Shown: positions 9,686 to 48,457 of the stretch, piece by piece
How the letters are laid out: each line of letters opens with the position of its first letter
Numbering within the stretch: position 1 is the first letter of the stretch
Assembly (NCBI GenBank): GCA_023957015.1
Contig: JAMLHR010000010.1
Coordinates: 8,693-72,692, forward strand
From: Thermomicrobiales bacterium
Lineage (GTDB): Bacteria; Chloroflexota; Chloroflexia; Thermomicrobiales; UBA6265
Direction of reading: 5' to 3'
DNA length: 64,000 nt
Program-made: the position numbers and the translations under genes
Notes under the pieces: model-generated
The model's database searches: none
Seen by the model: the letters and a program-made list of their open reading frames with translations, nothing else
What the model was told of the DNA's origin: nothing

Positions 9686-11968
9686 ATGCCCGACTACGGT
9701 CACGATCTTCGATTCGGTATCAATCTCGTTCCGGTGGCAAATCCGGTTCATAATATCGTTGCCCTGGCACAGATCGCTGATCAGGCGGGGCTGGACTACG
9801 TCACCTTCCAGGATCATCCTTACAACAACACATTTGTGGATGCCTTCTCGCTCATGACCTGGGTGGCGGCGCAGACGGAGCAGATCAGGGTTGCTGGCAA
9901 TGTGCTCAATCTGCCGCTGCGTCCGCCCGCAATGCTGGCGCGGTCGTCCGCGGCACTGCAGATACTCAGCAACGGACGCTACGAGCTTGGACTCGGCGCC
10001 GGCGCATTCTGGGACCCGATCGCCGCGATGGGCGGTCCCAGACGAACTCCGGGCGAGGCAACACGAGCACTTGAGGAAGCGATCGATCTCATCCGCCAGA
10101 TCTGGAACACCGAGCTCCGTGGCGGTGTCCGCTTCAGTGGCGAGTTCTACCAGGTCAGCGGGATGACGCGGGGACCCGAAATCCGGGCGGAAATCCCGAT
10201 CTGGCTGGGTGCGTACAAACCCAAAATGCTCAAGCTCCTCGGGCAGAAAGGCGATGGCTGGCTGCCAAGCATGGGTTACATGGAGGTCGAGGGCTTTGCC
10301 GATGGCAATGCCCGGATCGACGATGCCGCAGTCAATGCCGGTCGCCGACCGGAAGACATTCGCCGCATGTTCAATATCATGGGGTCGTTCCTGCGGGCAG
10401 ATCGCGGTTGGCTCAAGGGCACACCACAGATGTGGGCGGAGCAGCTGGCGGAACTCTCGCTGCGAGATGGTGTCAGCACCTACCTGCTCGGCACACAGGA
10501 TCCAGCCGATATCCAGACATTCGCCGAGGAAGTCGCGCCAGCAGTGCGCGAGATCGTCGCCAAGGCCCGCGGCGAGGAGCTGCCGATCGATCACCGCCGT
10601 CCCTCGCTGACCAGCTACACCAGGGAAACCGATGCGAGTCGCAGCGAGAGGATCGATTACGACGCCATTCCCGAATCGCTCAAAGCCGCCTCGGTCGCGC
10701 CGGATCAGCCAGGCTATGATCGCGTGCGTTCGACCTATATGCAGTCCGGCACACCGGGTCTGGTCCTGATGGCATCATCGGCGGAACAGGTCGCCGAAGG
10801 ACTGGAGTACGTCCAGAAACAGGACGTGTCCTTCAGTCTGCGCGCTGGCGGGCATGGTTCCGGTGGACTCAGCACCAACGATGGCGGCATCATCCTGGAT
10901 GTCAGCCGTATCAACGATATCTCCGTTATCGACGAAGAGACTCGCAGGATTCGGGTTGGGACGGGTGCGACCTGGGGGATGGTGGCCGAAGCGCTGGCTC
11001 CGCACGGCTGGGCGATGACGAGTGGTGATTTCCCGGATGTCGGCGTCGGTGGCATCGTCACCACCGGCGGTATCGGCTTGCTCGCACGCAAGTACGGACT
11101 GACCATCGACAACATGGTCGCCGCCGAGATCGTGCTTGCCGATGGCTCGTTCCATCGCGTCAGCGAAACCGAGAATCCGGAACTGTTCTGGGGTATTCGC
11201 GGAGCTGGCGGCAATCTCGGTGTGGTCACGCACGTCGAACTGACGGCGCTACCGGTCGAGAATGTCATCGTCGGTCAGTTCGTCTTCGATGCCAGTGATC
11301 TCACCGAGTTCCTGGTCAACTGGGGTGCCTACATGAAGGCCGCTCCACGGGAGTTGCAGGCGTTCGCCTACTACTCACCGCGACGTCGTGGCTCGGATGC
11401 CACCATGCAGACACTGATGGTTTGGTCGAACGACAACGCGGATGCTGCGGTGGCGGCGCTGAATCCCATCCTCGATATCGCGCCGGTGCTGCAACAGGGC
11501 GCGACCATCGTCCCCTACTCCGCCATCATGCAACCGGTGAACCAGGCACATTCCGGTCAGCAGACGTTACGCGCACGATCTGGTTTGTTGGATGAATTGA
11601 ATCGGGAGACCGCAGAAGCGATCAAGGCGTTGATGGAGGCTGGTCGTGTGCCGTGGGCGAACTTCCGCCACGTTGGTGGCGCGGTCAACGATGTCCCTGC
11701 CGATGCGACCGCCTACGCTCATCGCACGCAGGATGTTTGCTTCACCGCCTTCGATCTCTACCCGGATCGTCGCAATATCGATCCCGCCTGGCAGAAGTTC
11801 GCGCCATTCGTTCACGGTGACTACCTGAATCTGGAGACGGACACCAGCGAACGCACCGTTCGCGAGATCTATCCGACACCCACCTACGAGCGGATTCAGC
11901 GGCTGAAATCGCAATACGATCCCAAGAACGTGTTCAATCGCAACTTCAACATCCCGCCGGTGAAGTAA
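9686..11968 (+). CDS. Fusion protein: LLM-class (luciferase-like, probably F420-dependent) oxidoreductase + FAD-binding PCMH/BBE-type oxidase
   Basis: Single uninterrupted 760-aa ORF. Residues 1-~300 look like an LLM (FGINLVP...LDYVTFQDHP...YELGLGAGAF). Residues ~355-760 look like FAD_binding_4 (RAGGHGSGG, FWGIRGAGGNLGVVT) with a BBE-like C-terminus (YLNLE...RLKSQYDPKNVFNRNFNIPP). Confidence 0.8.
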   Translation: MPDYGHDLRFGINLVPVANPVHNIVALAQIADQAGLDYVTFQDHPYNNTFVDAFSLMTWVAAQTEQIRVAGNVLNLPLRPPAMLARSSAALQILSNGRYELGLGAGAFWDPIAAMGGPRRTPGEATRALEEAIDLIRQIWNTELRGGVRFSGEFYQVSGMTRGPEIRAEIPIWLGAYKPKMLKLLGQKGDGWLPSMGYMEVEGFADGNARIDDAAVNAGRRPEDIRRMFNIMGSFLRADRGWLKGTPQMWAEQLAELSLRDGVSTYLLGTQDPADIQTFAEEVAPAVREIVAKARGEELPIDHRRPSLTSYTRETDASRSERIDYDAIPESLKAASVAPDQPGYDRVRSTYMQSGTPGLVLMASSAEQVAEGLEYVQKQDVSFSLRAGGHGSGGLSTNDGGIILDVSRINDISVIDEETRRIRVGTGATWGMVAEALAPHGWAMTSGDFPDVGVGGIVTTGGIGLLARKYGLTIDNMVAAEIVLADGSFHRVSETENPELFWGIRGAGGNLGVVTHVELTALPVENVIVGQFVFDASDLTEFLVNWGAYMKAAPRELQAFAYYSPRRRGSDATMQTLMVWSNDNADAAVAALNPILDIAPVLQQGATIVPYSAIMQPVNQAHSGQQTLRARSGLLDELNRETAEAIKALMEAGRVPWANFRHVGGAVNDVPADATAYAHRTQDVCFTAFDLYPDRRNIDPAWQKFAPFVHGDYLNLETDTSERTVREIYPTPTYERIQRLKSQYDPKNVFNRNFNIPPVK

Positions 11969-12070
11969 CGCGGTTTGTTGGCTGCAACCCTGTGCGTACC
12001 CATGGTTTTCGGGATATGTTAGCCAGATAACAATGGAGATATCCGTACGTAATCGGGGATAGGGAAAGAC

Positions 12071-12784
12071 ATGCCGATCGTTTCAGCTCCGGGCGGACCA
12101 AAAATCCTGGTGACCGCCGCACATCCGGACGATATCGAAGCCACCTGCGCCGGAACGCTCATGCTCGCGATCGCGCAAGGTGCTCGGGTGAGGCTGTTGC
12201 TGGCAACCTCGGGAGACAAAGGTTCCAGCGATCCGGCCATAGACCCCGTGGCATTGGCGGCACAGCGAGAGTCTGAAGCGCAGAATGCCGCAAGTATCCT
12301 CGGTATCGAGGCCGTGGAGTTTCTCCGATACCCAGATGGCGAACTCGAGAACACCCGCGAGCTCCGTGGTCATATCGTGCGGGCCATCCGCGAGTGGCAA
12401 CCCGATGTGGTGTTCACCTTCGATCCCGAACATGCCCTGCCGCCTTATCTATCCCATCGGGATCATCGAGTGATCGGTCGCGCCACACTGGATGCGGTCT
12501 ATCCCCTGTCGCGCGATCACCTTAGTTTTCCGGAGCTTATCAGCAAGACACTAACACCGCACAAGGTCGCCGAAGTGTGGCTGTACTACAGCGGGATCGC
12601 CGATAGCTGGGTAGATATCAGCTCCGTCATGGATCGCAAGATTGACGCGCGTCTCGCGCACGCCTGTCAGACGCCGGACCCGGCACTGTTGAGAACCGCC
12701 TGGTTCGAACGCGCGCGCATTGCTGGCGAAGCGGGAGGATTGCCGATGGCTGAGGCCTTCACCATTATCCAGGCGCTGGCGTAG
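12071..12784 (+). CDS. PIG-L/LmbE family deacetylase
   Basis: 237 aa. ILVTAAHPDDIEATCAGT and HRDHR motifs. Confidence 0.8.
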   Translation: MPIVSAPGGPKILVTAAHPDDIEATCAGTLMLAIAQGARVRLLLATSGDKGSSDPAIDPVALAAQRESEAQNAASILGIEAVEFLRYPDGELENTRELRGHIVRAIREWQPDVVFTFDPEHALPPYLSHRDHRVIGRATLDAVYPLSRDHLSFPELISKTLTPHKVAEVWLYYSGIADSWVDISSVMDRKIDARLAHACQTPDPALLRTAWFERARIAGEAGGLPMAEAFTIIQALA

Positions 12785-12888
12785 GCGCGATCTCACGAAG
12801 ATTTCCTGACAGTCAGGAACCGATTGGCACCATACGATTGAGCGAAATCTCATCCGCATCCAACACCGTGTACGAAAGGTAGATACCA

Positions 12889-14589
12889 ATGTCCCCAATC
12901 CCCTCCGATCTCGAGATCGCGCAATCCGCCACCATGCTGCCCATGAACGATGTGGCGGCGCAACTCGGTATCGCCCCGGAGTATCTCCTCCCCTACGGTC
13001 GTAACATCGCCAAGGTGGATCCTGCCGTCGTTGAGACGATGGGCGATCGCGAACCCGGCAAGTACATCGTCGTTACCGCGATCACACCGACACCGCTCGG
13101 CGAGGGCAAGACGACGACCGCCGTTGGTTTAGCCCAGGGTCTGAAGCATGTCGGCAAAACCAGTGTGCTCACGCTCAGGCAGCCGAGCATGGGACCAACC
13201 TTCGGTATTAAAGGCGGAGCCGCCGGTGCTGGCTACAGCCAGGTGCTACCTATGGAGCAGCTCAACCTGCACTTAACCGGCGACTTTCACGCTGTCACCG
13301 CTGCCCACAACCTGCTGGCGGCGATGATCGATAACCACCTCCACCACGGCAATGCGCTCGATCTGGATATCGATGCGATCCAGTGGCGACGCGTGCTTGA
13401 TGTCAATGATCGTTCGCTCCGCGATATCGTTATCGGTCTTGGTGGCAAGGCCGATGGTGTGACACGCCAGACAGGCTTCGATATCACTGCCGCCAGCGAG
13501 GTCATGACGACACTCGCACTCGCGACCAGTCTGGAGGATTTGCGCGAACGGCTGGGACGGATCGTCATCGGTCGCAATCGAAGTGGGAAGTTCGTCACCG
13601 CCGAAGATCTCCAGGCAGCTGGCGCGATGACGGTCATCCTACGCGATGCCATCTGGCCCAACCTGCTTCAGACGACCGAGAACACACCGGTGCTCATTCA
13701 TTGCGGACCGTTCGGGAATATCGCCACCGGCAATAGCAGCATCATCGCCGATCAGGTCGGACTGCGCACCGCCGAGTACGTGATCACCGAGGCGGGTTTC
13801 GGTGCCGATATGGGTGCCGAGCGCTTCTTCAACATCAAGTGCCGCGTCGGGAATGCCCGTCCGGCGGCGGCTGTGCTGGTGGTCACCGTGCGGGCGCTGA
13901 AGGCGCACAGCGGTCGCTTTAAGATCACACCGGGCAAACCGCTTCCACCGGAACTACTGGCCGAGAACGCGGACGATGTCCGCGCCGGTGCCGATAACCT
14001 GCGCAAGCATATTCAGATCGTACAGGGATTCGGTGTGCAACCGGTTGTCGCGATCAATGCCTTCCCCACCGATCACGCCAGCGAGCATGAAGCGATCCGT
14101 GAGATCGCCGAAGCGATGGGTGTGCGCGTGGCCGTCAGCACGCATGTTGTCGATGGCGGTCCCGGTGCGGCTGATCTGGCGCGAGAGGTTATCGCTGCGG
14201 CAGAGGAAGAGACGAACTTCCAGTACACCTATGAGCTGGAGATGTCGCTGAAAGACAAGATCGCCGCGGTCGCGACCAAGGTGTACGGCGCGGCGGATGT
14301 CTCCTACGCGCCGCTGGCGGCAAAGAATCTGAAGGCGTTTGAGGATGCCGGATATGGCAGTCTGCCAGTGGTGATCGCCAAGACGCACCTCAGTGTCAGC
14401 AGCGATCCGAAGCTGAAGGGTGCGCCAACTGGCTGGACGCTGCCAGTGCGCGAGGTGCGACTTGCTGCGGGTGCAGGCTACGTCTACGCCATCGCGGGCG
14501 ATATGACGACCATGCCAGGGCTGGGTAACTCTCCTGCCGCCGAGCGAATCGATATCACTGAGGATGGCAAGGTGGTGGGTCTTTTTTAG
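12889..14589 (+). CDS. fhs: Formate--tetrahydrofolate ligase
   Basis: 566 aa. PTPLGEGKTTTAVGL P-loop and family-wide conservation throughout. GAAAGG lies upstream. Confidence 0.97.
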   Translation: MSPIPSDLEIAQSATMLPMNDVAAQLGIAPEYLLPYGRNIAKVDPAVVETMGDREPGKYIVVTAITPTPLGEGKTTTAVGLAQGLKHVGKTSVLTLRQPSMGPTFGIKGGAAGAGYSQVLPMEQLNLHLTGDFHAVTAAHNLLAAMIDNHLHHGNALDLDIDAIQWRRVLDVNDRSLRDIVIGLGGKADGVTRQTGFDITAASEVMTTLALATSLEDLRERLGRIVIGRNRSGKFVTAEDLQAAGAMTVILRDAIWPNLLQTTENTPVLIHCGPFGNIATGNSSIIADQVGLRTAEYVITEAGFGADMGAERFFNIKCRVGNARPAAAVLVVTVRALKAHSGRFKITPGKPLPPELLAENADDVRAGADNLRKHIQIVQGFGVQPVVAINAFPTDHASEHEAIREIAEAMGVRVAVSTHVVDGGPGAADLAREVIAAAEEETNFQYTYELEMSLKDKIAAVATKVYGAADVSYAPLAAKNLKAFEDAGYGSLPVVIAKTHLSVSSDPKLKGAPTGWTLPVREVRLAAGAGYVYAIAGDMTTMPGLGNSPAAERIDITEDGKVVGLF

Positions 14590-14604
14590 GGGTAGTAGAT
14601 GTAG

Positions 14605-14674
14605 CCCCGGACCGATCGGTCGCGTTGTAGAGGATAACTGTGAACAACCAATCGCGACCGTGAGTGGTCCGGGG
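14605..14674 (+). repeat. H1 hairpin repeat, copy A (two stems separated by a conserved asymmetric internal loop GATC / GTGAGT)
   Basis: CCCCGGACC-GATC-GGTCGCG-[28 nt]-CGCGACC-GTGAGT-GGTCCGGGG. Related copies lie at 32305-32373 and, inverted, at 32472-32542. Confidence 0.65.
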
Positions 14675-14687
14675 TATGTCCGGTGGC

Positions 14688-14786
14688 GCCAAGATGACCG
14701 GGCTGCCGCACCTCCGGGTGATGGCGGTCAACATGCCCCAACCTGACCGACCATGGGGCGGGAGCCGGGAGGTCGGTCATCTTGGC
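14688..14786 (+). repeat. M2 structured repeat, copy 1
   Basis: Closed by a perfect 13-bp stem GCCAAGATGACCG...CGGTCATCTTGGC. Has internal hairpins and a conserved GGTCAACATG centre. A direct repeat of it lies at 15422-15510. Confidence 0.6.
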
Positions 14787-14808
14787 AGAGGAGTCGATCA
14801 GAAGACCT

Positions 14809-15411
14809 ATGGATGTGACTCCCACTATCTACGACCGCGAGGTCCTGGAGAAACTCTTCAACGGCAGCGCTAAAGGTCGGAGACACGTCCATTTCTTCGC
14901 CGCGATCCCAGATGATCTCATTCCGCACTTGCCCGGATTCTGGTGGGATCAACGTAAACTCTTCGCTCTGGACTTGGAGAAGGAAATACTTTCCACCAGT
15001 GAACTCGACTATCTTCTTGATGTCCCGATCTGGCGAGCAACAGCGCAATCATCCCTCTTTGCTGTGAGAGGGAGAGACATCCTAATGAATCCTAAAAGGT
15101 ACCCCGATCACTGGAGAAGGATTCAGGCTGCTGATATCTCGTATCCCATCATTCTCTACAAGAGAGACGGATACATTCTCCTTCTTGATGGATACCATCG
15201 ACTCCTTAAACCAATATATGAAGGTCACTCTCATATTCATGCTTCATTCATTGCGTATGAGCGTATTGATGGCATTCTCATCACCGAAAGGTTCCTCGGA
15301 GAACTCAATACTGCGTCTCGCGATGATCCGGAGTTCATCGTCCACGCCCGGGAGGTTGCTCGCGATCTCCTCGTGTCAGAAAAGGTAGATCAGTATCCGG
15401 CCTGGACGTAG
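14809..15411 (+). CDS. ParB/sulfiredoxin-fold domain protein (DGYHR motif), otherwise uncharacterised
   Basis: Visibly more AT-rich ORF. PIILYKRDGYILLLDGYHRLLKP (DGYHR at 15187-15201) matches the ParB N-terminal/Srx-fold core motif. The N-terminal ~120 aa is unrecognised. The track starts at TTG 14782; I prefer ATG 14809. Confidence 0.6.
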   Translation: MDVTPTIYDREVLEKLFNGSAKGRRHVHFFAAIPDDLIPHLPGFWWDQRKLFALDLEKEILSTSELDYLLDVPIWRATAQSSLFAVRGRDILMNPKRYPDHWRRIQAADISYPIILYKRDGYILLLDGYHRLLKPIYEGHSHIHASFIAYERIDGILITERFLGELNTASRDDPEFIVHAREVARDLLVSEKVDQYPAWT

Positions 15412-15421
15412 TTGACCCCAC

Positions 15422-15510
15422 GCCAAGATGACCGGGGTGCCAACCCCCTGGGGGTGGGTGGTCAACATGACCGGCATCGGCCGGGGGCGTGGAAGGTCGG
15501 TTACCTTGGC
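15422..15510 (+). repeat. M2 structured repeat, copy 2
   Basis: Same 5' arm GCCAAGATGACCG. The 3' arm CGGTTACCTTGGC gives one G-U and one A-C. The GGTCAACATG centre is conserved, and the internal hairpins differ in sequence but still pair. Confidence 0.6.
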
Positions 15511-15632
15511 TGAGAAGCCATATTGTAGGCTCGGGTCGACCGCCGCTTGCGGCGTAAGTCTTCCCGGGAACCGCCCGCAGGCGGCATGATGCGAATGCGG
15601 CGACGGAACCTGTGTTATGCCCAAACACCATT

Positions 15633-15651
15633 GTCACCCACGAGGGGTGAC
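15633..15651 (-). terminator. Hairpin immediately downstream of the tsaC stop
   Basis: GTCACCC-ACGAG-GGGTGAC lies 1-2 nt after the stop codon (15653-15655, minus strand). No strong U-tract. Confidence 0.4.
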
Positions 15652-15652
15652 G

Positions 15653-16282
15653 CTACCTGCTGGCCGTTCCCCACGCTGACCGGAGCTCATCCGCGCTGAT
15701 CGCACCCTCGCGCAGCACCACAATCTCCCCATCAACCACACGAATGACCGTGCTGGGGTTCTCTTGCGGTGAGAAGCCGCCATCCAATACCAGATCAAGC
15801 TTGCTGCCAAATGAATCCTTGATCTCGGCAGCGGAGAGAGCTGCCGCCTGACCGGAGAGATTGGCACTGGTGGTGGCGACTGCACCACCGAGGCGTTCGG
15901 CGATGGTGAGCGGGATGGAATGGTTCGGAAGACGCACACCGATGGTGTTGTCCGGGGCCTTCACCTCGGCGGGAAGATGATCCGCGGCTGGAAGCACAAC
16001 GGTCAATGCCCCCGGCCAGAATCGCTGCGCGAGATCGATCAAGCGCTCATCGACATCCGGACTGAGATCATCGATCACTTCCGCTCGCGCGATCAGGATC
16101 GGCAGCGGCTTATCTGGCTGCCGACCCTTGAGATCGTAGATACGCTGTAGCGCCGCCGGATGCTCCAGGCTGGCACCGATGCCGTAGACGGTATCGGTGG
16201 GGAACGCGACTATGCCACCGCGACTCATGGTGATGATCGCCTCTTCGAGCGCGCGTCCTTCCTCAAGACTCAGATACGACAT
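15653..16282 (-). CDS. tsaC: L-threonylcarbamoyladenylate synthase (YrdC/Sua5 domain)
   Basis: GGIVAFPTDTVYGIGA, KGRQPDKPLPILI and TSANLSG motifs. The preferred start is MSYLSLEE at 16282 (track ORF reaches 16312). Overlaps the uvrC 3' end by 20 nt. Confidence 0.85.
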   Translation of the reverse strand: MSYLSLEEGRALEEAIITMSRGGIVAFPTDTVYGIGASLEHPAALQRIYDLKGRQPDKPLPILIARAEVIDDLSPDVDERLIDLAQRFWPGALTVVLPAADHLPAEVKAPDNTIGVRLPNHSIPLTIAERLGGAVATTSANLSGQAAALSAAEIKDSFGSKLDLVLDGGFSPQENPSTVIRVVDGEIVVLREGAISADELRSAWGTASR

Positions 16283-18152
16283 CTGCCTGCTCCTTTGTCT
16301 GAGACGTATCACCGATCGCGGATTTCAACGCCAACGCCACACTCTGGTTAATACCATCGACGGCCGTAATCTCATCGATCGTCGCCGCTCGCATCGCCTT
16401 GATCGAACCGAAGTGCTTCATCAGCGCCTTCTTGCGAGTCGGCCCGACGCCCGGGATGTCATCCAGCTGGCTCTTAAACGCGTTCTTCCGCCGTGTATTG
16501 CGATGATAGGTGATCGCGAAGCGATGCGCCTCGTCCCGGATACGTTGCACCAGGAAGAGCGCCTGCGAATCGCGCGGCAGCAGAATGGAATCCGGTCGAC
16601 CGGGCAGGAAGATCTCCTCCTGCTCCTTGGCGAGACCGCAAATCGGCACCTCCATGCCGATTTCCTCCAGCGCTTCCAGGGCTGCGCTCAGCTGCCCCTT
16701 GCCACCGTCGATGATTACCAGATCGGGGAGCGTCGTCCACTTACCCTCGGTCTCCTCATCCGCCTCTTTGGCGCGACGGAAACGGCGACCGATGACCTCC
16801 TTCATGCTGGCGAAGTCATCCGCCCCAACCACCGTCTTGATACTGAAACGGCGGTATTCCTTCTTCGCCGGACGACCATCCTCGAAGACGACCATACTCG
16901 CGACCGGCGAGGTGCCCTGGATATTGGAGTTATCGAAACACTCGATCCGTCGCGGCATTCGCGGCAGGTCCAGCGCCTCCGCCAACTCGGTCATGGCGGC
17001 GGTCATCTTCATCTCGTCGCTCAGGTGCTTGATCCGCGCCTGTTCCAGATTCTCGGCGGCACTCTTGGCGACCATCCGCACCAGGCCCAGCTGATTGCCT
17101 CGCTGGGGTACGTGGATGCTCACCTTACCGCCCCGCTTGGCGGTGAGCCACTCCTCGATCATCATCGCCTCTTCGGGGAGCATGGCGTATTGCATCACCA
17201 ACCGTGGCGGCACCAGGGCAGCATCCTCGTAGAACTGGGTGACAAACGCCTGCAGAATATCGCTCTCGCTATCTTCCACCCGCGCCTGCATTGGGAAGAA
17301 CTCGGAACCAATCATCTTGCCGTGGCGGAGGAAACTGATCTGGACACCAGCATCGCCGCCCTCGCCCTTACTGACACCGATGATATCGGCGCTGGAGCCG
17401 GTATCGATGACGATCTTCTGTCGCTCCAGCACGTGGTTCACGGCCTGGAGGCGATCCCGCAGCTCCGCTGCTCGCTCGAAGTTCAGATCTTCGGCGGCCG
17501 CGATCATCTCGTGTTCGATATCCTTGACGATCTCGTCGCCCTTGCCACTGAGGAACTTGGCGGTGGCGTCGATCGCCTTCATGTACTCCTCGTGGCTGAC
17601 GGCGCCGATACAGGGTGCGGTGCACTGGTGCATATGGAAGTAGAGACAGACCTCATCATGTCCGGTAATCTTCTTGTCGCATTTGCGGTATGGGAAGAGC
17701 CGATTGAGCAGATTGATCGTCTTGTAGGCGGCACCGGCGCTGGTGTACGGTCCGAAATACTGACTGCCATCCTGCACCACCAGGCGCGTGCTGATCACGC
17801 GCGGCCATTCCTCATTAGTGATACGGATATATGGATAGGTCTTACTATCCTTCAGCATGATGTTGTACTTGGGTAAGTACTTCTTGATGAGGTTGTTCTC
17901 GAGAATGAGTGCCTCGGTGGCGGTATCGGTGCGAATCACCTCGAAGTCGGTGATGTGGCTCACTAGCTCCCGGGTTTTAGGATCCTTGTGTCGTTGGTTC
18001 TGAAAGTAGGATCGCACCCGATTGCGCAGGCTGATCGCCTTACCCACATAGAGGACGTTCCCATCGGCGTCTTTCATCAGATAGACGCCCGGTCGCGTGG
18101 CAAGTGAGGCGAGGCGGGAACTGAAATCGGGGCGGGAATTCTTCGTCGTCAT
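16263..18152 (-). CDS. uvrC: Excinuclease ABC subunit C
   Basis: 629 aa. GIY-YIG N-terminus (PGVYLMKD...VLYVGKA), UVR domain, and a C-terminal HhH pair. Confidence 0.97.
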   Translation of the reverse strand: MTTKNSRPDFSSRLASLATRPGVYLMKDADGNVLYVGKAISLRNRVRSYFQNQRHKDPKTRELVSHITDFEVIRTDTATEALILENNLIKKYLPKYNIMLKDSKTYPYIRITNEEWPRVISTRLVVQDGSQYFGPYTSAGAAYKTINLLNRLFPYRKCDKKITGHDEVCLYFHMHQCTAPCIGAVSHEEYMKAIDATAKFLSGKGDEIVKDIEHEMIAAAEDLNFERAAELRDRLQAVNHVLERQKIVIDTGSSADIIGVSKGEGGDAGVQISFLRHGKMIGSEFFPMQARVEDSESDILQAFVTQFYEDAALVPPRLVMQYAMLPEEAMMIEEWLTAKRGGKVSIHVPQRGNQLGLVRMVAKSAAENLEQARIKHLSDEMKMTAAMTELAEALDLPRMPRRIECFDNSNIQGTSPVASMVVFEDGRPAKKEYRRFSIKTVVGADDFASMKEVIGRRFRRAKEADEETEGKWTTLPDLVIIDGGKGQLSAALEALEEIGMEVPICGLAKEQEEIFLPGRPDSILLPRDSQALFLVQRIRDEAHRFAITYHRNTRRKNAFKSQLDDIPGVGPTRKKALMKHFGSIKAMRAATIDEITAVDGINQSVALALKSAIGDTSQTKEQADVVSES

Positions 18153-18383
18153 GCCGGAATTATATCAGAACGGATGTTCCCGTTGATTTTGCTTCGTCCA
18201 GATCTTTGGCGACTCAAGCCGCTGAATCGAGCCTAATGGGACAAACTGGGACTATTTAGAGGCAGCATCCTGTGATATACATCAAAGAGCCTGGGGGACA
18301 AATAGTAGCCATTGGCGATCCATAACTCTGGTTTGGACCAAGGGGATGATCGTCGGATCTCTAAAGCAATGCGGAGGTGAGCA

Positions 18384-19985
18384 ATGTCGAATAAGGGAGA
18401 ATCAGCATCGACACTTAGTTGGAGCAATCCAAGACATCTCGTCAAAATAGCCCCCAGCGGGAGAGTATGCTATGTCATATGCAATCCTGATGGATCTCTA
18501 ATAGAGAGAGACGCTTATGATTGGCAGTCTACATGGCGAGGGAGGTGGCACTACAGCGAAGGCTGTCTGTCTATCAGAATCGGCCCATATGAACTCTGGA
18601 CCAATCCTAACTCTGTTGAGGCCGTTGAGATCGACCATCGCGATCCTGACCGCTCATCAACACCATTCCTAGTCTTACCCGTTATGACCTCAGAGGCATG
18701 GTCCGTTGGTGGTATGAGACCAGCATTCCTCAAGCTTACGAAACCAGGAGATCGATACGAACCCAAGATATCGGAGCTGGGGAATCGAGGCACTGTACTG
18801 GATTACTCCGCTGTCCGTGGCATGGAGGATTGGGTATGGAACGGCAAGTGGGAACATCGACTAGATTCCTACACAGTAAATATTGAGGACAAGTGGATTT
18901 GGTCTGGAAGTCGTGTCCAAGGATATGGGCTGCTGCGTGGGAGAGAGAAAGGCGAAGAAGGCGAATGGGAACTCAATGCCATCTCTGTGCTACTACCACA
19001 TTGTGGTATTCGGGAACCAATGCACGATCGTTCTCCAAACGAAGAAAATCCAATAGAGAATCCTTCGATTATGGCTGGCCGGAAGAAACGTAAGGGATCC
19101 GCTCTGGAGAATTGGGAGATCGAGACGCTGAAGCATGGAGTGGTAGAGAGCAACTGGTATTGCTCATCCTGCCCAGACCTGTTCGAACCAGATGACCAGG
19201 GTCTAGCAATCTCTTCATTCAAAGCAGACGTTTTGATAGTAGTAGCAACCGAACTCGAACGACGGTACGCCCTCAATCTCCTTACACCATTGCCTGGACA
19301 CCAACAACCGGCCGAACGAGCGTTTTCCTCTCATACATATGTGTTTGGTATGATCGGCTCACATTACGTTGTTATCCTGATGGTGGCACCCGGGACGGTC
19401 GATATGCGGAGTGTAGATTTGGCAACTACTTCCGCAATTGCCCACTGGGATCCTCAGGCAATCATAATGGTTGGTATCGCCGCTGGGAACACCTGGAAGG
19501 AGAATCAACATATCGGCGATGTACTGGTGGCGCATTCGGTTCAGTCTTACGAGCACAAGAAGGTCCGTGATGGGAACCTAGAATACCGAACCTATGACAC
19601 TCCTCCGGCTCACAGAGCATTGGTGGACCGTTTTCATCACCCGACTGGTTGGAGATTCATCAAACCTGATGACACAAGTTCTGAAATACACTATGGTCGC
19701 TTGTTGAGTGGGAATACCCTTGTCGCAGATGCGCAGTACCGCGATGACCTATTTAAAGATTTCCCGGGTTCCATCGGAATTGAGATGGAGGGAGTCGGTC
19801 TTGCTCGAGCAGCGACTTACTCAGACAAACCTTGGATATTGGTCAAAGGTGTCGCTGACTGGGCGGATGGGAACAAGGGAGAACGGACCGATCTTTATCA
19901 GGAGATAGGTGCGGCAGCGGCAACGAGTTTGATAGGCACGGTCCTTTCAAGACACTCTGCTTTGGAGGGTCTCAAGAGAAAATAA
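18384..19985 (+). CDS. Two-part protein: unrecognised tandem Trp-rich N-terminal domain (aa 1-280) + PNP_UDP_1 / MTA-SAH-nucleosidase-like phosphorylase-fold domain (aa ~281-533)
   Basis: Strong SD GGAGGTG before the ATG; more AT-rich composition. C-terminal motifs occur in fold order: ADVLIVVATELE, IIMVGIAAGN, GDVLVAHSV, GIEMEGVGLARAA, ILVKGVADWADGNK. The N-terminus contains two related ~85-aa units (WRGRWHYSEGCLSIRIGPYELW / WNGKWEHRLDSYTVNIEDKWIW). Confidence 0.75.
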   Translation: MSNKGESASTLSWSNPRHLVKIAPSGRVCYVICNPDGSLIERDAYDWQSTWRGRWHYSEGCLSIRIGPYELWTNPNSVEAVEIDHRDPDRSSTPFLVLPVMTSEAWSVGGMRPAFLKLTKPGDRYEPKISELGNRGTVLDYSAVRGMEDWVWNGKWEHRLDSYTVNIEDKWIWSGSRVQGYGLLRGREKGEEGEWELNAISVLLPHCGIREPMHDRSPNEENPIENPSIMAGRKKRKGSALENWEIETLKHGVVESNWYCSSCPDLFEPDDQGLAISSFKADVLIVVATELERRYALNLLTPLPGHQQPAERAFSSHTYVFGMIGSHYVVILMVAPGTVDMRSVDLATTSAIAHWDPQAIIMVGIAAGNTWKENQHIGDVLVAHSVQSYEHKKVRDGNLEYRTYDTPPAHRALVDRFHHPTGWRFIKPDDTSSEIHYGRLLSGNTLVADAQYRDDLFKDFPGSIGIEMEGVGLARAATYSDKPWILVKGVADWADGNKGERTDLYQEIGAAAATSLIGTVLSRHSALEGLKRK

Positions 19986-20139
19986 GCACCCCTATTGCTT
20001 CGTTTTCATAGTCGCAGCCAAGACTCCGGGGACCAGGGTCCGCGCTGAAGACGGCAGCTTGCCTCCCTCCGCTATTCGTTCTGCACACTCGGCCACCTTC
20101 GGTGCCCCGGATCCGCAGGTGAGTCACGGCAGTTGTGGC

Positions 20140-20418
20140 CTACCCTTCGCGCATGAAGACGAGCTTCCATTCCCGCACGGTGGCACCGGTGATCAATCCA
20201 GCCTTGCTGAACGGATCGTTGGCGAGCAGCGTCTGCGCCTCGGCCAGGTCCTCGGCATCGTAAATGATCAGCGCACCGCTCCCATCCACGAACGGACCGG
20301 AGCTCTCCAGCTTGCCGACATCCAGGAGTTCCTGTAGGTAGGCGCGATGCGTCGGTCGTACCTCGTTGAGGCGATCAGCATCGGTGGTGTACTCGAGTAC
20401 TGCTGCAAAATACGCCAT
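20140..20418 (-). CDS. YciI family protein
   Basis: 92 aa. MAYFAAVLEY...RPTHRAYL...GPF...DPF matches the YciI-like pattern. Confidence 0.85.
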   Translation of the reverse strand: MAYFAAVLEYTTDADRLNEVRPTHRAYLQELLDVGKLESSGPFVDGSGALIIYDAEDLAEAQTLLANDPFSKAGLITGATVREWKLVFMREG

Positions 20419-20441: not shown

Positions 20442-20548
20442 CCCGGGGTTAAGGGCGGCAAGCTGCCGCCTTCGGCACCCGGAGGCCATATCGGTTCTCT
20501 CCACCCCCGGACTAAGGGCAGCAAGCTGCCGCCTTCGGCATCCGGGGG
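20442..20548 (+). repeat. Tandem GC-hairpin repeat, family R3 (2 units, ~63-bp period)
   Basis: CCCGGGGTTAAGGGCGGCAAGCTGCCGCCTTCGGCACCCGGAGG and CCCCGGACTAAGGGCAGCAAGCTGCCGCCTTCGGCATCCGGGGG. Each unit folds around GCGGCA-AGC-TGCCGC. An inverted partial copy lies at 20047-20068. Confidence 0.6.
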
Positions 20549-20603
20549 CTACGTCTGGACGCTTGCAAACCCGCATATGAAATGCGGGCCTACACCTTGG
20601 TCG

Positions 20604-47632: not shown

Positions 47633-47905
47633 CTAACGTGATCTCAGTGTCTTCCCAAATGCATGCGCTGCTTTCACCACCGTACTCAGTTTCACATCAT
47701 CGACATCTCGATTGATCAGGCGATCTACCTGGGACCTGCTGGTACCCATCTGACTCGCCAACTGAGTTTTACTCATCTCCTGACGCTCCATCTCTTCCAT
47801 CATCCAGTTCAAGACGTCAGTAAGTGCCTGAGTTTTGACTTCCTCATACGCACCCTCTGCAATCAGGAAATCATCAAAGGATTCTCCAAGGTGCTTGTTA
47901 CTCAT
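47633..47905 (-). CDS. XRE-family HTH antitoxin-like protein (HigA-like)
   Basis: 90 aa, intact. MSKTQLASQMGTSRSQVDRLIN is an XRE HTH. Its start overlaps the end of the decayed toxin reading frames. Confidence 0.75.
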   Translation of the reverse strand: MSNKHLGESFDDFLIAEGAYEEVKTQALTDVLNWMMEEMERQEMSKTQLASQMGTSRSQVDRLINRDVDDVKLSTVVKAAHAFGKTLRSR

Positions 47906-48300
47906 TCTCGCGTGCCTCCAAAAGCTGTTTTCTCCTTCGAGCAGCTACTGCCAGTTCGGATTTGGGGGTTTCTGCGTCTTCTTCGACGCATGAAGCAAAA
48001 TGGCCTCGCCGTTATTGTAGGGGTGAACAGAATTCCGACAATCCTGTGTGTCGTCAGATTTACGAATCTCCCAGATCTGGTTCTCCGAAACCGACATACC
48101 GGCATACCTATCAGCCAACCATACTCAACTCTTGCGATCGCGATGCCTACAACTTTCCGATCGTCCTCGAAAGTTCCAGCAGAAAAATCCGAACGGGACT
48201 GCCGTTATCAACCCGAAAAGATCGCGCCGGCAAGGTCTTTAGCTCCGACAACTGAACCTCCAGGTACAAGGCAAGTGTACCATGCATGGTACGCGTCAAT
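47902..48300 (-). pseudogene. Decayed Gp49/HigB-like (RelE/ParE superfamily) toxin gene, multiple frameshifts and stops
   Basis: Family-like pieces are scattered over three minus-strand frames: LSELKTLPARS...VRIFLLELSRTIGKL*, QIWEIRKSD, HRIVGILF, NNGEAILLHASKKTQK, TPKSELAVAARRRKQLLEARENE*. The last junction is consistent with a 1-nt loss in CAGAAA(A)CCCCC. Confidence 0.5.
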
Positions 48301-48457
48301 ATCTTCCTCAAACTATGTTGTATGCGGGTGTACCTATATGTGTTGATGATCACGGTATCTGGCATCAGAAAGCGTCGGAGTCGTATCAGGACGAAACAGC
48401 AAATCGTACCCAGAGCCATCACTCTGAGAACTACTGATTCTATAGGGACGCCGTGGG

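Follow-up and report, generated by a model that had tools for sequence, protein, structure and literature searches.

What is a lone, AT-rich gene doing between two housekeeping genes of a Thermomicrobiales bacterium, and what kind of protein does it encode? The question arises from a 64,000-nucleotide stretch of contig JAMLHR010000010.1 (assembly GCA_023957015.1; the whole stretch is referred to here as the window), in which one plus-strand gene (18384-19985; 533 amino acids (aa), ATG start) has uvrC (16263-18152, minus strand) on one side and yciI (20140-20418, minus strand; Pfam YCII, E 7e-15) on the other. The initial annotation of this stretch, made by eye, had described this arrangement together with a strong Shine-Dalgarno sequence, and both are borne out: GGAGGTG can be read directly from the sequence at 18373-18379 (plus strand), 4 nt before the ATG. 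The product consists of an N-terminal tandem beta module (hereafter the N-module), a linker, and a PNP_UDP_1 nucleosidase domain. The reading favored here, with a probability of about 60%, is that of a horizontally acquired single-polypeptide conflict protein, most likely of the anti-phage abortive-infection type, whose N-module governs a nucleosidase of the ATP/dATP type.

The nucleosidase domain and its relatives

The C-terminal part of the protein (residues ~281-526; 19224..19961, plus strand) had been assigned to the PNP_UDP_1 fold from the order of its motifs alone, and profile searches agree with this assignment. Pfam PF01048 matches residues 283-514 (E 1.8e-17; 63.9 bits versus a cut-off of 25.1) and is the only Pfam domain found in the 533-aa protein, and all of the motifs quoted earlier are present (i.e., ADVLIVVATELE at 281-292, IIMVGIAAGN at 360-369, GDVLVAHSV at 378-386, GIEMEGVG at 465-472, and ILVKGVADWADGNK at 485-498). 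Alignment with the MtnN enzymes of E. coli and S. aureus places E292 (19257..19259, plus strand) at E. coli MtnN Glu12, E467-M468-E469 of the IEMEG motif (19782..19790, plus strand) at Glu172-Met173-Glu174, and D492 of GVADWADG (19857..19859, plus strand) at the catalytic acid Asp197. The columns of E292, E467, E469, and D492 are invariant across the aligned PNP relatives, and D492 probably occupies the class of position that was mutated in Cap17 (D472A) and DtcC (D353A). Loss of the catalytic pocket had been named as an observation that would speak against an active effector; the catalytic residues are kept.

Comparison with curated models separates the domain from housekeeping enzymes. Because every equivalog score lies under its NCBIfam cut-off (MtnN (PRK05584), 56.8 versus 169 bits; TIGR01704, 33.2 versus 73.8; futalosine hydrolase, 24.5 versus 124.7), NCBI criteria do not class the PNP domain as a housekeeping enzyme, and the gene lies outside any nucleoside-salvage operon. 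Identity as an MtnN or futalosine hydrolase equivalog is ruled out by these scores and by the absence of the gene from the closest relative of the host (see below). The PADLOC defense models match the PNP part alone, that is, the effector portion of Detocs-type (PDC-M60C, E 2.7e-18, spanning model positions 144-401 of 407) and CBASS-type ('PN-superfamily' effector, E 8.4e-13) systems, and nothing else in the protein is matched. Among ~5.8 billion proteins, the 16 nearest relatives of the domain are all 324-912 aa long and include no stand-alone housekeeping nucleosidase of ~230 aa. Second domains are recognized in several of them (AAA_35, NB-ARC+TPR, AAA, VMAP-M0/VMAP-C, EAD2, and EAD7), architectures that belong to NTP-dependent conflict systems. 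In the trimmed alignment of PNP domains, identity is 24-43% to the multidomain relatives, including a genuine Detocs-type DtcC, versus 18% to E. coli MtnN, and the domain bears the signature WILVKGxxDWADGxK of the multidomain group. The N-termini of the closest PNP relatives (P0002 and P0003) have no Pfam match and carry repeated 'Q..(D/G)GxWP..SD'-like motifs that recall the alpha-toroid repeats of terpene cyclases and prenyltransferases; they may represent another uncharacterized sensor, joined to PNP domains of this subgroup.

Characterized members of the PNP immune clade (Cap17, DtcC, and two eukaryotic proteins) cleave ATP/dATP, yielding adenine together with (deoxy)ribose-5'-triphosphate, mutation of the catalytic Asp abolishes defense, and membership in the clade is predictive of immune function for uncharacterized proteins (Rousset et al. 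2023, bioRxiv 10.1101/2023.01.24.525353). By analogy with the Cap17 clade, ATP/dATP would be the probable substrate of the enzyme described here. The effector is therefore not new in kind, since PNP/ATP-nucleosidase effectors are already known in the cyclic oligonucleotide-based anti-phage signaling system (CBASS), in Detocs, in prokaryotic Argonaute (pAgo) systems, and in NLR-like systems; it probably adds one more member to a known clade.

The protein resembles Cap17, DtcC, and the NLR-PNP proteins at its effector end. As in Cap17, the effector of type III CBASS, a PF01048 domain with a conserved catalytic Asp/Glu set lies C-terminal to a regulatory N-terminal domain, but there is neither a CD-NTase operon nor a messenger-binding domain of the SLOG/TPALS type (PF18178), and the N-module is an unrelated all-beta tandem repeat. 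The PNP domain is homologous to that of Detocs DtcC (PDC-M60C), with 24% identity to the DtcC encoded on Klebsiella plasmid NZ_CP089404.1; however, the protein has no receiver domain, and neither a DtcA histidine kinase nor a DtcB buffer protein is encoded nearby; phosphotransfer cannot be the means of activation. STAND/NLR-like and VMAP/EAD proteins with PNP domains (P0004, P0013, and P0014-P0016) are the closest PNP relatives (30-39% identity) and likewise unite sensor and nucleosidase effector in a single polypeptide, whereas the 533-aa protein lacks any NTPase, TPR, VMAP, or EAD module, and its sensor part, only ~205 aa long, is without an ATPase switch. Membership in CBASS, Detocs, or the STAND/NLR group was rejected after the defining sensor and partner components had been looked for and found absent. 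With MtnN of E. coli and S. aureus, the domain shares the fold family and the equivalents of Glu12, Glu174, and Asp197; it differs in its low identity (18-22%), in the 280-aa N-terminal extension, and in belonging to a gene that is not conserved in relatives.

The Klebsiella plasmid that provided this DtcC was reached through the PNP query. At positions 115014-120125, the Klebsiella pasteurii plasmid NZ_CP089404.1 carries a complete Detocs-type operon with IS3 transposases on its flanks, annotated merely as 'hypothetical protein / response regulator / response regulator'. The operon matches PDC-M60A, B, and C at full length (C: E 2e-103), from which it follows that PADLOC PDC-M60 corresponds to the Detocs architecture.

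The N-terminal module and its family

The N-terminal part of the protein had been taken as a 280-aa domain that matches no known family. A novel module is indeed present, but its conserved portion is shorter, comprising ~205 aa (residues ~9-212; 18408..19019, plus strand; boundaries from the family hidden Markov model), and is followed by a non-conserved linker of ~70 aa (residues 213-280; 19020..19223, plus strand) that includes the basic patch GRKKRKG (232-238) and has no counterpart in relatives. Searches of Pfam, NCBIfam, PADLOC, PHROGs, and PDB sequences return no family match for the module, yet it is not an orphan: an exhaustive phmmer search against 1.84 billion cluster representatives identifies 16 other proteins that match residues ~9-210 (E 3e-31 to 8e-4). 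One further match (P0027) was set aside as spurious, as it involves low-complexity sequence only. A word-index homolog search proved blind to the module (queried with residues 1-280 and with the family profile, it missed even the self-match), and its negatives were discarded. Single narrow peptide patterns recover no relatives from species-representative genomes, viral contigs, or Joint Genome Institute (JGI) metagenome contigs, results that count as weak negatives.

The two related units perceived by eye in this region correspond to repeat 1 (residues ~15-105; 18426..18698, plus strand), which contains YDWQSTWRGRW (45-55), and repeat 2 (residues ~106-212; 18699..19019, plus strand), which contains EDWVWNGKW (148-156). 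Their similarity is marginal in the single sequence (Smith-Waterman score 45 versus 28.6 +/- 5.5 for shuffles, with 6 of 500 shuffles reaching 45) and clear when the family profiles of the two repeats are aligned (hhalign probability 97.9%, E 5.9e-13, 74 columns), so that, as judged from these profiles, the module is a true tandem duplication. The pattern common to both repeats is K..SG...(D)G...E...W.G.W......L.I.VG.Y.(L/W)...G..E, with Trp, Lys, and Glu kept at equivalent positions. An AlphaFold2 model of the module, built from a 12-sequence alignment, is confidently all-beta (predicted local distance difference test (pLDDT) score 92.2, predicted template-modeling score (pTM) 0.89) and has 17 strands, 8 in one half and 9 in the other, with short turns between them. 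The closest solved structure found by Foldseek is 4q51 (probability 0.99, E 4.5e-4, global template-modeling score (TM) 0.28, root-mean-square deviation 18.6 A, 13% identity); other matches include 4ghb (TM 0.43) and single-barrel viral proteins of ~100 aa from BFVD, each covering one half (TM 0.5-0.66). Like the module, 4q51 is all-beta with two barrel domains, but there is no sequence-profile match that would establish homology, and its annotation ('MoaF', function unknown) offers no functional insight. A weak Lipocalin_4 match is found in one family member. The module is therefore regarded as a tandem of small up-and-down beta units, which may be calycin-like, and is not placed in any family.

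The composition of the family supports the idea, put forward in the initial annotation, of a sensor fused to an effector. Pfam scans place a Ser/Thr protein kinase domain in 11 of the 16 relatives, with the module N-terminal in 10 of these, and a TIR_2 domain in one (P0022), while four have no recognized second domain, including P0021 (206 aa) and P0033 (194 aa), which are essentially the module or its repeats alone. The 533-aa protein is the single PNP fusion within the family. In P0025 (447 aa), three copies of a single ~90-aa repeat stand C-terminal to the kinase, whereas P0033 consists of two repeats only; these arrangements indicate that the single repeat is the evolutionary unit and that it can stand on either side of a kinase. 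All family members have a domain boundary near residue 190-217, the H-x-D-x-K-x-x-N of the catalytic loop and a DFN motif are preserved in the fused kinases, and the family-invariant residues of the module are all kept in the 533-aa protein. Its recurrence in fusions with kinase and TIR domains is what would be expected if the module has a regulatory or sensory function and its effectors can be exchanged. The N-termini of other PNP fusions that match no known family, including a similarly sized protein (516 aa) from a Rhizobium plasmid, were considered as distant relatives of the module and found to be unrelated.

The family is rare and patchy, with only 1-2 members in each 90% cluster and almost all members coming from metagenome assemblies. 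The host contigs of the relatives are GC-rich (0.60-0.70), several member genes lie below their surroundings in GC content, and the genes appear monocistronic. One kinase member (P0018) lies in a region rich in transposase and FtsK genes, and the TIR member adjoins a GmrSD_C/SspH-like gene. Another kinase member (P0019) is adjoined, convergently, by an operon (9979-16866 of its locus, L003, and also seen at L004 and L005) encoding a 514-aa protein of unknown function, a PP2C phosphatase, a Ser/Thr kinase, an FHA protein, a radical-SAM protein, and an AAA_2/AAA_5 ATPase. The pooled neighbors of the relatives match the PADLOC models mad6 (E 1e-38) and mad8 (E 5e-18) of the MADS system, and these matches most plausibly come from this operon. 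Many other neighbors have no Pfam match. These contexts are suggestive of variable or defense regions. Within the relatives themselves, PADLOC models of PD-T4-6-type kinases, the MADS mad6 kinase, and Thoeris ThsB-type TIR proteins match the kinase or TIR domains, which is not the case for the 533-aa protein; all of these matches start after residue ~197 and are thus limited to the generic catalytic domains. The libraries and literature searched do not cover the sensor module or its kinase/TIR/PNP family, and no description of the combination of the module with a PNP domain was found in that literature.

Insertion of the gene between uvrC and yciI

The AT-richness of the gene, previously judged by eye, is confirmed by measurement. 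Its GC content is 0.501, compared with 0.584 +/- 0.026 for the 42 other long open reading frames (ORFs) in the window (z -3.3), and its GC content at third codon positions (GC3) is 0.481 versus 0.669 +/- 0.056 (z -3.4), the lowest among the 43. The two halves of the gene are alike in composition (GC 0.496 and 0.507), and the fusion was therefore acquired as one unit. The product has the same sequence as M9934_05990, a hypothetical protein from a Thermomicrobiales metagenome-assembled genome (MAG; GCA_023957095.1, contig JAMLHP010000008.1).

Using the window UvrC as a query across 185,579 species-representative genomes, the closest relative is the Thermomicrobiales MAG HKST-UBA75, whose UvrC is 93% identical. 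This genome shares the gene order aroC-aldh-osmC-yciI-uvrC-sua5 with the window and lacks the 533-aa gene: its yciI-uvrC spacer measures 102-130 bp, versus 1,988 bp in the window. Homology at the nucleotide level (82%, blastn) runs from sua5 through uvrC to 27 bp past the uvrC start codon, breaks off at window position 18179, and restarts within yciI at 20154. Relative to this empty site, the insertion (18180..~20026; ~1.85 kb, GC 0.501) contains the one gene with 204 bp upstream and ~40 bp downstream. None of the 11 Thermomicrobiales/Chloroflexia uvrC loci encodes a homolog. More distant relatives do not retain the synteny, and an outgroup therefore cannot polarize insertion versus deletion; gain in the window lineage is favored because the composition of the inserted segment deviates. 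Absent from a syntenic close relative and deviant in composition, the segment is a genomic island, and the horizontal acquisition that had been hypothesized is upheld. No transposase, integrase, target-site duplication, or terminal direct or inverted repeat is found in the insertion (18180-~20026), and a mobile-element origin was dismissed on the lack of a transposase, an integrase, a target-site duplication, and terminal inverted repeats. The occupied and empty sites in two closely related Thermomicrobiales genomes provide a useful natural control.

The insertion also has consequences for its neighbor. In the closest relative, uvrC immediately follows yciI on the same strand, whereas in the window the two genes are separated by the insertion. 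Since foreign DNA starts 27 bp upstream of the start codon of uvrC, the promoter of that gene presumably has to lie within it, in a region that would be shared divergently with the 533-aa gene. A consensus scan of 18153-18383 detects no sigma-70-like site, and the consensus scan for promoters and terminators yields nothing above chance.

GC hairpins resembling repetitive extragenic palindromic (REP) elements, with the core GGCAGCAAGCTGCCGCC, occur on both sides of yciI, as noted earlier. Two tandem copies (20442-20486 and 20505-20549) lie on the far side of the gene, and a diverged, inverted copy (20044-20068, within 20027..20075) lies where the insertion ends on the right, between the 533-aa gene and the end of yciI; the strict hairpin pattern occurs only twice within the 64-kb window. 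A homologous hairpin in the closest relative (~9899-9942 of that locus) occupies the same place in the yciI-uvrC spacer, just beyond the end of yciI. The position of this copy coincides exactly with the insertion's right border, which suggests that the hairpin marks an insertion hot spot.

Two other ORFs in the window have a low GC content. One (14782-15411, plus strand; 209 aa, GC 0.498, GC3 0.538) has the formate-tetrahydrofolate ligase gene on one side and sua5 on the other, and matches a phage family whose function is unknown (phrog_17560, E 9.8e-12), with no match in Pfam, PADLOC, or the PDB; a ParB-like identity guessed for this ORF found no support. Nucleotide synteny with the closest relative ends at sua5, right beside it, and this region may be another variable spot. 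The other ORF (47663-48346, plus strand; 227 aa, GC 0.493, GC3 0.496) deviates nearly as much as the 533-aa gene and has no match in Pfam or PADLOC.

Alternative readings, mechanism, and significance

Several observations weigh against a role in anti-phage defense. The uvrC and yciI neighbors are housekeeping genes, and the locus is no defense island. Most partners of the N-module are kinases, which are also used in ordinary signaling, and the defense context of the relatives comes without a background control, several of the matched models being generic (e.g., kinase, DEDDh). On the effector side, the pairwise scores of the PNP domain against S. aureus MtnN (44 bits) and the DtcC-like protein (57 bits) are similar, and the neighbor-joining tree is compatible with immune-clade membership at bootstraps of 3-16% and with a single housekeeping outgroup. 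The comparison set contains no authentic Cap17 sequence, and placement derives from nearest neighbors, profile matches, and this tree rather than from a full phylogeny. The catalytic residue set is intact, with the integrity of the pocket judged from the primary sequence; the single-sequence AlphaFold2 model of the full protein is unusable (pLDDT 30). Finally, the fold match of the N-module is loose (global TM 0.28-0.43).

The strongest competitor retains the architecture and has the N-module sense a small molecule, such as a second messenger or metabolite from an unlinked system or from the phage, making the protein an orphan effector akin to those of CBASS. Barrels of this type often accommodate small ligands; the halves of the module resemble small up-and-down beta units, its best fold matches are small beta-barrel proteins, one member has the weak Lipocalin_4 match, and Trp, Lys, and Glu are kept at equivalent places across the repeats. 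Cap17 itself is gated by a messenger-binding N-terminal domain (Rousset et al. 2023, bioRxiv 10.1101/2023.01.24.525353). Yet no cyclase or other signal-generating gene lies beside the 533-aa gene or any of the seven relatives examined, kinase domains would be atypical as second-messenger-gated effectors, and the fold assignment on which the proposal leans is itself weak, all of which leaves this reading rather unlikely.

The remaining explanations are less likely still. If the N-module were an ordinary input of Ser/Thr kinases in GC-rich bacteria, here regulating a nucleoside or nucleotide hydrolase in salvage, S-adenosylmethionine (SAM)-cycle detoxification, or signaling, then the preponderance of kinases in the family, the near-equal scores of the PNP domain against MtnN and defense models, and the housekeeping neighborhood would all be expected. 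Such a role is hard to reconcile with a gene that is foreign in composition and missing both from the closest relative and from each of the 11 related uvrC loci, with the missed equivalog cut-offs and the immune architecture of the nearest PNP relatives, with a TIR fusion in the same family, and with the extreme rarity of that family (1-2 members per cluster), which is unlike that of a conserved signaling input; it is accordingly considered improbable. Comparably low odds are given to a selfish or inter-bacterial toxin module (i.e., a fused toxin and autoinhibitor acting as an addiction element) or an inert, decaying passenger. A lone gene without partners or mobility genes beside a REP-like hairpin, carried by one genome only and lacking a promoter recognizable by consensus scan, might suggest as much, but the 1.6-kb ORF is intact and has its strong Shine-Dalgarno sequence, all catalytic residues and family-invariant residues of the module are kept, and Pfam scans reveal neither a secretion signal nor a polymorphic-toxin delivery domain.

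Under the favored reading of an acquired conflict protein, the N-module would act as the regulatory or sensor part and hold the nucleosidase off until an infection cue is bound, the cue being more probably a phage protein than a small molecule. Binding would lead the module to bring effector domains together, and the activated PNP domain would then cut an abundant adenine nucleotide, most likely ATP/dATP, at the N-glycosidic bond, releasing both adenine and the (deoxy)ribose-5'-triphosphate, draining the supply of energy and deoxynucleoside triphosphates (dNTPs), and arresting the infected cell. Obligate oligomerization, with active sites shared between subunits, characterizes the MtnN/PNP enzymes; the composite active sites of TIR NADases must be assembled, and dimerization and trans-autophosphorylation activate Ser/Thr kinases. 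Activation by induced self-association is proposed because all three partner types share this requirement, and an input module that serves PNP, TIR, and kinase domains alike would most simply be a clustering device. A broader proposal, advanced tentatively and at somewhat less than even odds, is that the ~205-aa module is an undescribed infection sensor defining a new single-protein defense family with three effectors (nucleosidase, TIR NADase, and Ser/Thr kinase), which would operate through trigger-induced self-association without an NTPase switch or second messenger.

The novelty of the protein lies on its sensor side, in a compact all-beta tandem domain that is found on PNP, TIR, and kinase domains. 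If the N-module works as a sensor, the 533-aa protein would provide a minimal system for studying how one input switches oligomerization-dependent effectors, and would add a family overlooked by defense-finder tools, which detect the generic catalytic halves alone. In that case, kinase-based and nucleotide-depletion defenses would also be linked by a common sensor.

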